DNA from: Parachlamydiales bacterium
Lineage (GTDB): Bacteria > Chlamydiota > Chlamydiia > Chlamydiales > JAJFMK01
Reading direction: 5' to 3'
Assembly (NCBI GenBank): GCA_963765145.1
Contig: CAVXVG010000018.1
Span: forward strand, 1-64,000
Length of the DNA: 64,000 nucleotides
In this document: positions 60,007-61,768 of the stretch, in pieces
How positions within the stretch are numbered: position 1 is the stretch's first letter
How the letters are laid out: the number at the start of each line of letters is the position of its first letter
Translations under genes and position numbers: made by a program
The notes under the pieces: generated by a model
Databases searched by the model: none
What the model was told of the DNA's origin: nothing
The model's input: only the letters and a program-made list of their open reading frames with translations

Positions 60007-60086
60007 CGCGAAGCGTTTGGAGTGCTCAAACTCCTGTTTAGCTTTCACTTATCAATGAAAATGAAAGCTAAACAGGAGTTTAGCAC
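60007..60086. repeat. Family A repeat, copy 8, left part; the rest is at 61698-61712 beyond the IS
   Basis: Ends ...GGAGTTTAGCAC at the IS junction and resumes TCCAAACGCG at 61698. Confidence 0.93.
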
Positions 60087-60225
60087 ATACTGTAATTGCG
60101 CTTCAGAGCTTAGCCGGTAAGAAAATGGGCTGTTCTAGGAGGGTTTTAAAAACCCCACGGAGTAGTACTAGACTCTCCAGGCTTTGGCTTGGTAGCCTAA
60201 GCAAGCAATACAGGAGAACAGCCCA

Positions 60226-61326
60226 ATGAAACATTATATCGGTTTAGACGTATCTTTGAAAACTACTGCCATCTGCATCATGGCTCAAGATGGTAAGATC
60301 ATCCGAGAGATGACAGCCGCTACTGACCCTTTAGCTATCGCAACTGCGATCAAGACGACCAAGCTCACTATTGAAGCTATAGCAATTGAAGCTGGTGGAA
60401 CAAGCCGATGGCTTGTTCAAGAACTTCAAGAGCTTGACCTTCCAGCGATATGTATCGACTCTCGCAAAATGGCTGCCGCCATCGCAATCAAAGCCAATAA
60501 AACAGACAAAAACGATGCGAGGGAAATCGCAAACGCCCTTCGGACTGGCTACTTTCAAGAGGTCTATCAAAAAAACGATACAAATATGAGCATCAAAAGT
60601 CTCTTAAACATCCGACGCAATCTGGTGATACAAAGAACCATGACGAGTAACTGTATCCGCGGTACTTTGAGATGTTGTGGAAAGCTTTTTTTAGGGTCTA
60701 GTAGTAGTCAAAAGAACTTCATAGAGAAGGTAACAGAGTCGATACAAGATCAACCTGAAGAGGTCGCAATGGGCATTCGTGCACTTTTAGTAACCTTTTC
60801 TCAACTTCACAAACTAGTAGATGAAATAGACAAGAAGATCGAAGACATAGGAAAGAATGACGAAGTCGTTCAGCTGCTAATGACAGTTCCTGGTGTAGGG
60901 ATCGTAACTGCAGTGAGCTATAAGGTTGAAATTGGAGACCCAAAAAGATTCACACGATCGAGGTCAGTTGGAGCATATGTTGGGATGACTCCAAGGCAGT
61001 ATAGTTCAGGTGAAACCGAGCATCAGGGGAAAATAACAAAGATTGGATCAAATGAACTCAGAGCGCTGCTATCTGATGCCGCCATGAGCATGATGTATCG
61101 ATGCAAAACATGGAGTAGAGCCAAAGTTTTTGGGCTAAAGATCAATAAGAAGCATGGGCATAAAAAAGCTATAGTTGCCCTTGGTCGGAAGCTTGGTGTG
61201 ATAATGCATCGAATGTGGACAGAAGGTAAACCATTTGAAGCTGGTGAAGTCGAGAAAAAAGAAATTGATAAAGTAACCAAGCCAAGTCGGAAAGAGAAGA
61301 AAAAATCAAAGCAGATGGCTGCTTAA
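60226..61326 (+). CDS. IS110-family DEDD transposase/recombinase
   Basis: YIGLDVS, IEAG, KTDKNDA, PGVG, QYSSG (catalytic Ser region), ALGRKL. Confidence 0.95.
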   Translation: MKHYIGLDVSLKTTAICIMAQDGKIIREMTAATDPLAIATAIKTTKLTIEAIAIEAGGTSRWLVQELQELDLPAICIDSRKMAAAIAIKANKTDKNDAREIANALRTGYFQEVYQKNDTNMSIKSLLNIRRNLVIQRTMTSNCIRGTLRCCGKLFLGSSSSQKNFIEKVTESIQDQPEEVAMGIRALLVTFSQLHKLVDEIDKKIEDIGKNDEVVQLLMTVPGVGIVTAVSYKVEIGDPKRFTRSRSVGAYVGMTPRQYSSGETEHQGKITKIGSNELRALLSDAAMSMMYRCKTWSRAKVFGLKINKKHGHKKAIVALGRKLGVIMHRMWTEGKPFEAGEVEKKEIDKVTKPSRKEKKKSKQMAA

Positions 61327-61394
61327 GAAAAGTTAAAAAAGTTCTCAAAGAGCGAAAGAGCAGAGAGAGTAAGAAAAAAGATTCAAATACGAGT

Positions 61395-61555
61395 TCGAAA
61401 TAAGGTTAAGACGCTTTGGAGTTGACGCTAATAAGACGTCGTGTAGCACATTGTCTTACCTTGTTTCTTTTGGAAAGTATGTTGGGGCTGAAGATCAGCT
61501 AATAAGGCCGAAATCTTCAATAAAAAGGACCCCGGAGAGAACTATGACCGAGTTA
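61395..61555 (+). ncRNA. Predicted bridge/seek RNA of the IS (boundaries approximate)
   Basis: Two stem-internal-loop modules whose loops match the target (TTTGGAGT, TAGCAC) and the donor junction (AGTATGT, AGAGAAC). Confidence 0.82.
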
Positions 61556-61768
61556 GAATTTTATTTTTTACGATCAAGCTTTGGAAGCCCATAGAGGAAG
61601 TTGTCAATTATCTTGGGGGAAGTATCCCCCAAACCCCCTCGGCTTAGGAAGGGGAAAGAGAAAAAATCATGCTTGCCTAGAAACGCAATTAGAGAACTCC
61701 AAACGCGTTGCGAACTAAAAAGGGTTGTTTACGCCGGTTAGTTATGCAACAGGGACGCTCCGCGTTAT

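Follow-up and report, generated by a model that had tools for sequence, protein, structure and literature searches.

The targeting of REP sequences by insertion sequences (IS) of the IS110/IS1111 group is already established, and the available text of PMC1525189 describes REPs used by five IS families, and two IS110 elements that share one REP position. The RNA-guided mechanism has been published for IS621 (PMC11208160) and for ISPa11 (PMC11187229). The initial annotation of the DNA discussed here relied upon the recombination of IS110-family elements at a short core and upon their targeting of REPs, and both are documented for IS621, ISPa11 and ISPpu9/ISPpu10 in the available parts of PMC1525189, PMC11187229 and PMC11208160. 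REPINs are doublets of REPs with a tetranucleotide tag, and in Escherichia coli the tag GTAG is needed for both binding and cleavage by RAYT (available text of PMC3479197).

The window, i.e. the whole stretch of 64,000 nt that was analysed, comes from a Parachlamydiales bacterium (contig CAVXVG010000018.1, termed C18). On the strength of a Chlam_OMP6 match below the cut-off, the host is tentatively placed among the environmental Chlamydiota. Toward its end is located an IS110-family element of IS1111-type layout (60087–61697, plus strand), with a length of 1,611 bp including one copy of the core. We consider it highly probable (about 0.93) that this is an IS1111-type element whose predicted 3′ bridge/seek RNA directs the recombinase to the dinucleotide AC at the tag of a REP/REPIN repeat. 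The initial annotation had proposed an IS110/IS1111 element with a 2-nt core, a guide match to GTGCTA and a multi-copy landing pad. That reading is supported by the analysis presented below; the RAYT-type nature of the REP and two other transposases had been missed.

The element and its insertion point

The element interrupts a REPIN-like palindrome that lies between two convergent genes, encoding a 794-aa autotransporter with an Asn/Gly-rich passenger (57566–59950, plus strand) and a 382-aa protein kinase (61769–62917, minus strand). Reading from the left, the palindrome (60007–60086) begins with its left arm, which from 60013 comprises a GGAG tag and a hairpin with an additional C, and continues through a spacer into the hairpin of the right arm (60067–60084). 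The left target half-site is TAGC followed by the AC core (60081–60086, plus strand, with the core at 60085–60086). The element follows directly, and beyond it is the displaced outer end of the right arm. This forms the right target half-site (61698–61712, plus strand), and contains most of the GGAG tag as read on the minus strand. Excision of 60087–61697 restores a perfect right arm of the repeat family (hereafter family A), and AC is present at both junctions (60085–60086 and 61696–61697), just as had been annotated. The earlier reading of the two arms is equally correct: the left arm of the interrupted copy has GTGCTC, whereas the occupied arm has GTGCTA on the minus strand.

Within the ends lie the 12-bp subterminal inverted repeats of the initial annotation, matching at 11 of 12 positions. 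The left repeat (60093–60104, plus strand) begins 6 nt inside the left end, while the right repeat (61680–61691, plus strand) is followed by GAGA and then by the AC core (61696–61697), and is thus 4 nt inside the right core. Together with the 2-nt core this would place 12 nt between the repeats in the predicted circle. The asymmetric 6/4 layout is common to the homologs and to ISMno22. The extensions quoted for the IS1111 group are 7 (or 6) and 3 bp, giving 10 nt, so that the end spacing of the present element is 2 nt longer. Its non-coding sequence is distributed unequally, with 371 nt downstream of the recombinase gene compared to 139 nt upstream.

The recombinase and family assignment

The element encodes a 366-aa DEDD recombinase (60226–61326, plus strand) with a PF01548 N-terminal DEDD domain (E = 4e-17) and a PF02371 C-terminal domain (E = 4e-24). 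The protein scores 239.5 bits against NF033542 (IS110 RNA-guided transposases), for which the cut-off is 140. D8, E55, D94 and D97 are invariant among 45 aligned homologs, as are G253, P256, S260, S261 and G262 of the G--P----SG motif.

The element is assigned to the IS110 family, all of whose testable features are found in the sequence. The AC core is present at both junctions in five of five copies with the target restored on removal, and an RNA carrying both target and donor guides is predicted from covariation and from a scaffold, i.e. from sequence alone. Three features of IS1111 are also found, namely the 12-bp subterminal repeats, the longer downstream non-coding region and the order of the guides. 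The element therefore appears to be of IS1111 type by its layout (repeats, RNA position and guide order), not by phylogeny. A transposase search of named genomes gave only five distant matches (26–27%), and the homolog tree is a quick version whose members are unnamed homologs only.

A predicted guide RNA in the right end

The 371-nt right end is predicted to encode a bridge/seek RNA, of which one segment (61402–61462, plus strand) spans both target guides. The right target guide TTTGGAGT (61415–61422, plus strand) is the reverse complement of the core plus 6 nt of the right flank, and the left target guide TAGCAC (61444–61449, plus strand) is the same as 4 nt of the left flank plus the core. 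This order, with 61415 before 61444, is that of the IS1111 seekRNAs, in which the complement of the top strand precedes the match to the bottom strand (available text of PMC11187229). The predicted right donor guide AGTATGTT (61476–61483, plus strand) complements the core and the left end of the element. It is followed by a donor-loop stem and the predicted left donor guide (together 61483–61542, plus strand); the guide itself is AGAGAAC (61536–61542, plus strand), identical to the last 7 nt of the element. In the homologs the right donor guide tracks the left end, as judged by inspection only.

The relationship between guides and flanks was analysed in 44 loci, made up of those with a nucleotide-profile match to this region (one per element) together with L060, and counting the window IS. 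The loop could be read in 30 of the 44 loci, 14 being unreadable with the pattern used. In 22 loci the four bases of the left guide before the core could be compared with the left flank, and 80 of 88 positions agree (20,000 shuffles gave a mean of 27.2 ± 5.2 and a maximum of 51). For the right guide five bases were compared in 23 loci, and 100 of 115 positions pair with the right flank (shuffles 47.9 ± 5.3, maximum 70). Since the homologs are related, the shuffle test overstates the significance. When each guide is represented by a single locus the counts become 58/64 (left) and 83/95 (right). On the left the match weakens beyond ∼5 nt, and on the right beyond ∼6 nt. Another 23 loci of the same phylum were taken, of which 11 were readable; 10 of these have guides that agree with their own flanks, and those of the remaining locus (L195) disagree. 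The guides vary freely even between close kin.

The scaffold has a consensus fold in which 19 of 20 pairs are formed in 29–30 of 30 rows, with compensatory changes. Folded alone, the window RNA is no more stable than shuffled sequences (z = −0.83), and it matches no Rfam family.

The closest relative with readable flanks (L183, 58% identity) is the sister of the window IS in the quick tree, with a support of 100. Its target, CATA-AC-TTTTAA, is AT-rich, its own guides differ, and its genome has no exact REP motif. As L183 has other guides and an AT-rich, non-REP site, it is likely that the guide was retargeted to the REP locally, in the lineage of the window IS. L062 was considered as a relative using the same site and was rejected; its guides are similar (CCGC/TCCAA), but there is no family-A arm at its site. 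In another genome (G053, L013–L041) a 46%-identical relative has expanded to give 34 matches, many of them broken by other IS, and its guides fit its target, TAT-AC-TCGTTT, allowing for a single G–T wobble.

Five copies at one site

The assembly searched (2.68 Mb, 84.8% complete) contains five full copies of the element, at C18:60087 (in the window), C27:238112, C29:27679, C29:48882 and C29:153242. Three of them do not differ at all; a fourth carries a single substitution and the fifth an insertion of one base that shifts the frame, and overall the copies are 99.8–100% identical. All five are inserted at CAGGAGTTTAGC-AC-TCCAAACGC, and a right-end remnant of ∼33 nt on C21 also abuts TCCAAACGC. 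The initial annotation had named copies in unrelated sequence, or with different ends, as evidence that would count against it; site and ends are shared by five of five. The copies occupy five distinct gene contexts, none of them within an ORF of at least 150 aa.

Copies this similar, with near flanks that are also alike, could in principle derive from one insertion that was multiplied through copying of the REPIN, through gene conversion or by a duplication in the assembly. We regard this as extremely unlikely. REPIN spacer, outer flanks and neighbouring genes differ from copy to copy, and of the five copies one is located in a lone arm and another beside a miniature IS5-type element. Moreover, the guide match accounts for the site without extra steps, and insertion directed by the guide is the preferred reading.

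The 11-mer specified by the guides, TAGCACTCCAA, occurs 185 times, 182 of these in repeat arms, compared to 1.3 occurrences expected by composition. The TAGC variant makes up 177 of 308 free arms (58%). It is found on both arms of window palindrome copies 3, 4 and 7 (23147, 34629 and 57397), which had been singled out as unused sites. The occupied GTGCTA (TAGC) arm had further been described as the variant that matches the guide. The guide UAGCAC does indeed match it, but the preference is not significant: all five insertions are in TAGC arms, and with the variant present in 58% of arms this gives p ∼0.065. The preference is consistent with the guide, and is no proof of a choice between variants. 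The suggestion that the repeat provides a multi-copy, safe landing pad holds for the multiplicity (5/5 copies and ∼270 arms); that it is safe is deduced from position only. With ∼180 intergenic arms the target is abundant for the element, and probably low in cost.

In one public run (X1) a 180-nt contig of depth 2 joins the last 18 nt of the element to a flank. In the flank of X1 contig 3, 30 listed letters match C29 beside 242059–242060, where a TAGC arm is empty in the assembly. This hints weakly at a filled/empty polymorphism at C29:242059, as the element side of the joint falls short of the 31-letter bar, and the 20 letters shared could have given rise to a chimera.

The target is a REP/REPIN-like repeat

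The target repeat appears to be a GGAG-tagged family of the REP/REPIN-like type. The arm comprises the GGAG tag, then T and then a short hairpin, and variants within the stem remain paired. Exact 13-mer arm ends occur 270 times in the assembly (control 0), 264 of them outside ORFs of at least 150 aa; such ORFs make up 77% of the genome. Allowing one mismatch there are 332 arms, with 95 inward-facing pairs separated by <100 bp. The tag with its short hairpin, the inverted doublets, the intergenic location and the hundreds of copies are all as in REPIN/RAYT systems. A search of Rfam over the palindrome gave sub-threshold hairpin matches only. Among 400 other genomes of the phylum, >60 copies of the arm were found in three (G159, G393 and G248), and about ten in a few.

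A further likeness to REPIN/RAYT systems is that family-A arms flank NF047646 transposases in relatives. In three genomes scanned against that model (G159, G251 and G373), RAYT genes above the NF047646 cut-off have family-A arms on both sides, and in G393 a RAYT-like gene has such an arm on the sole available side. The family is unlike known REPINs in its GGAG tag and its own sequence, and in that a cognate RAYT was not found in the 84.8% complete assembly using PF01797, NF047646 or the RAYT of a relative as query. The best match to the latter is 28% identical, and a family-A repeat lies within 1.5 kb of none of the six Y1 genes of the assembly. Since RAYT genes are flanked by the arms in relatives and none was found here, we describe the repeat as REP/REPIN-like, with a mobiliser that is missing or unassembled in this genome. 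In the available text of PMC3733652 and PMC6006769 the string 'GGAG' is absent.

Because palindromes flank every copy of the IS and a matching RAYT was not found in the assembly, it might be argued that they are remnants or ends of the element itself, and not RAYT-type REPs. This is scarcely credible, given that ∼270 arms stand without IS sequence, that homologous IS have the same ends with other flanks, and that RAYT genes of four relatives have these arms beside them. The AC core overlaps the final base of the GGAG tag, and insertion of the element thus parts the tag from the hairpin. As GTAG is needed by the E. coli RAYT, an arm occupied by the IS would by analogy likely be disabled for its own RAYT. 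An IS110 search of five other REP-bearing relatives gave a match in one, a distant element with no REP motif at its locus.

Other repeats were noted in the assembly. Two RAYT-type genes above the NF047646 cut-off (C5:119131–119679 and C28:46754–47143) adjoin another, GTAG-bearing palindrome family that is not family A. The window has a second dispersed palindromic repeat family based upon AACAGGAT units (27644–27798, 33124–33283, 48280–48602 and 51799–52215), and also three tandem paralogous segments (22234–26593) that are ∼1.5–2.1 kb apart and 72–93% alike in parts.

Other mobile elements at the REP arm

A second IS110 element (L163, L211) is present as a single copy at C25:31094–32618, in the opposite orientation to the window IS. 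It encodes a 362-aa protein that is above the NF033542 cut-off and is 26% identical to the window recombinase, and it has nearly terminal 12-bp repeats. Comparison with homologs places its core at the AG that ends the tag, one base from the AC core. The left guide matches TTTGG-AG. The right guide matches 3 of 5 bases at the actual site and 6 of 6 at the minority GTGCGCA arm. Covariation of guides and flanks could be read in 7 of 13 loci, giving 30/35 and 26/30 matches against shuffle means of 12 and 11. The right flank of this element (C25:32617–32904) matches C28:1–301 at 97.6%; the start of C28 opens with REP-like letters, not with an IS end, and may represent either an empty allele or a miniature element that is paralogous.

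A DDE element of 1,114 bp with PF13737 and PF01609 domains, which we take to be of IS5 type and IS903-like, is found at C29:69607–70720 (frameshifted), C25:32915–34028 and C2:1–1115. Its 16-bp terminal repeat is shared by ∼50 miniature derivatives of 100–1,600 bp, and one such repeat lies within the window, at 57347. The ends of these elements abut the arm 9-mer with at most one mismatch in 93 of 132 cases (background 0.0003), and of the 48 paired elements with flanks, 27 show a 9-bp duplication that starts at the tag. Among the IS5-type ends of four relatives, 15 of 19 abut the local REP arm (in G001, G159 and G373), and the single end in G393 does not. The 9-mer at the ends changes with the local REP variant in G001, G159 and G373. 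As the duplication follows the local variant, the enzyme may read the hairpin or the tag, and not a fixed sequence. In the open literature, supplements aside, no IS903-like element with strict REP targeting was found. The interiors of the miniature elements (e.g. C20:99913–100191, C21:72685–72863 and C25:32627–32849) hold widely varying cargo, often including other palindromic families; some of these palindromes resemble the ends of Y1 transposase genes on C21, C24 and C5. The cargo as a whole looks like nested mobile debris.

The DDE element, which is without a known guide RNA, uses the same arm as the window IS and follows the variants of this arm across genomes, and this indicates that readout of the REP by protein or structure exists in these genomes. 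By extension, the window recombinase could read the REP hairpin or tag directly, with the RNA match being secondary. We consider this very unlikely. The guides covary with the flanks in dozens of homologs, most of which have non-palindromic targets, and RNA is required in the family members studied in the available text of PMC11187229. Direction by the predicted RNA remains the preferred reading for the window IS.

Three unrelated transposition chemistries may converge on the REP arm as a common hot spot, all of them acting within 1–2 bases of the GGAG tag. Two would be the IS110 recombinases (26% identical), guided from opposite strands to AC and AG, and the third the DDE enzyme that duplicates 9 bp. 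We advance this tentatively, at slightly under even odds. Such a three-way convergence on one REP tag, and chiefly the variant-following DDE element, would be the more surprising by-product of the analysis. If true, the arm would be a natural arena in which parasites exploit a parasite, and a DDE enzyme that strictly targets REPs would be a possible tool.

DISCUSSION

The sequences themselves show both ends of the element and its core, its five sites, the match of guides to target and the covariation of guides with flanks. The steps of the reaction are proposed by analogy, drawn from the available parts of PMC11208160, PMC11187229 and PMC12288879. Following IS621, ISEc11, ISPa11 and ISPpu10, the element would be excised as a circle joined at AC. 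The circle junction would form a promoter, with a −35 box derived from the right end and a −10 box across the core. The candidate −35 box is TTGCCT (61673–61678, plus strand), located 18 nt ahead of a −10-like sequence, CATACT, which would arise only at the circle junction. Of 56 distinct right ends, 28 (that of the window IS among them) have a −35 box of the TTG type 17–18 nt ahead of the final core base. The RNA would then pair with both strands of the target and with both donor ends, and a recombinase tetramer would exchange strands at the core, leaving no true duplication behind. Thirteen public runs matched, none of them with half of the query words; the circle joint was not found in the contigs of four public runs, and the coverage in a public RNA run was limited to 204 nt of a relative with 98% identity.

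The element would provide natural targeting by a bridge/seek RNA in the Chlamydiota, a lineage for which no report was found in the literature. The literature search likewise found nothing on this IS or on any REP-targeting IS in Chlamydiae, although ISfinder and supplements (including that of PMC11208160) may include it. The compact family of AC-core recombinases has a readable scaffold and ∼20 natural guide–target pairs, and these pairs should be useful in mining for genome-editing tools and in deriving pairing rules.

The closest match bearing an IS name, among the 25 plasmid matches listed, is ISMno22 of a Methylobacterium nodulans plasmid (NC_011887), at 40%. By eye its ends have the same layout, with a 2-nt core, 6 nt and a repeat on one side, and a repeat, GAGA and the core on the other. 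Its core is AG, and neither its repeat nor its target is that of the window IS; it is a separate element.

IS621 of E. coli has a DEDD domain with a C-terminal serine recombinase, and the window protein matches PDB 8WT6 (E = 3.9e-14). Like the window IS, IS621 has four guide segments, a 2-nt core and a REP target (available text of PMC11208160). In contrast, the RNA of IS621 is in the left end, with the reverse guide order and a CT core (PMC11208160), whereas that predicted for the window IS is in the right end, with an AC core. The window IS also has long subterminal repeats that distinguish it from IS621.

ISPpu9 and ISPpu10 of Pseudomonas putida provide a precedent for two IS110 elements on one REP site, being 57.8% similar and located at the same position (available text of PMC1525189), and ISPpu10 is a precedent for a junction promoter (available text of PMC12288879). 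The window IS and the C25 IS110 element are, by comparison, 26% identical; they are inserted in opposite directions, their cores are offset by one base, and a DDE element uses the same arm.

A similar layout is found in ISPa11, an IS1111 element of P. aeruginosa. It resembles the window IS in its subterminal repeats, its downstream non-coding region and its guide order (available text of PMC11187229), and all of its copies lie at one position of the host REP (available text of PMC1525189), as do those of the window IS. The host group, the REP family and the core are different, and the likeness is one of layout; the window IS has a 366-aa protein, and its repeats would be separated by 12 nt at the predicted junction, as opposed to 10 nt. 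By analogy the window IS probably works like ISPa11. It is a clear-cut additional case of a published mechanism, which it leaves unchanged.
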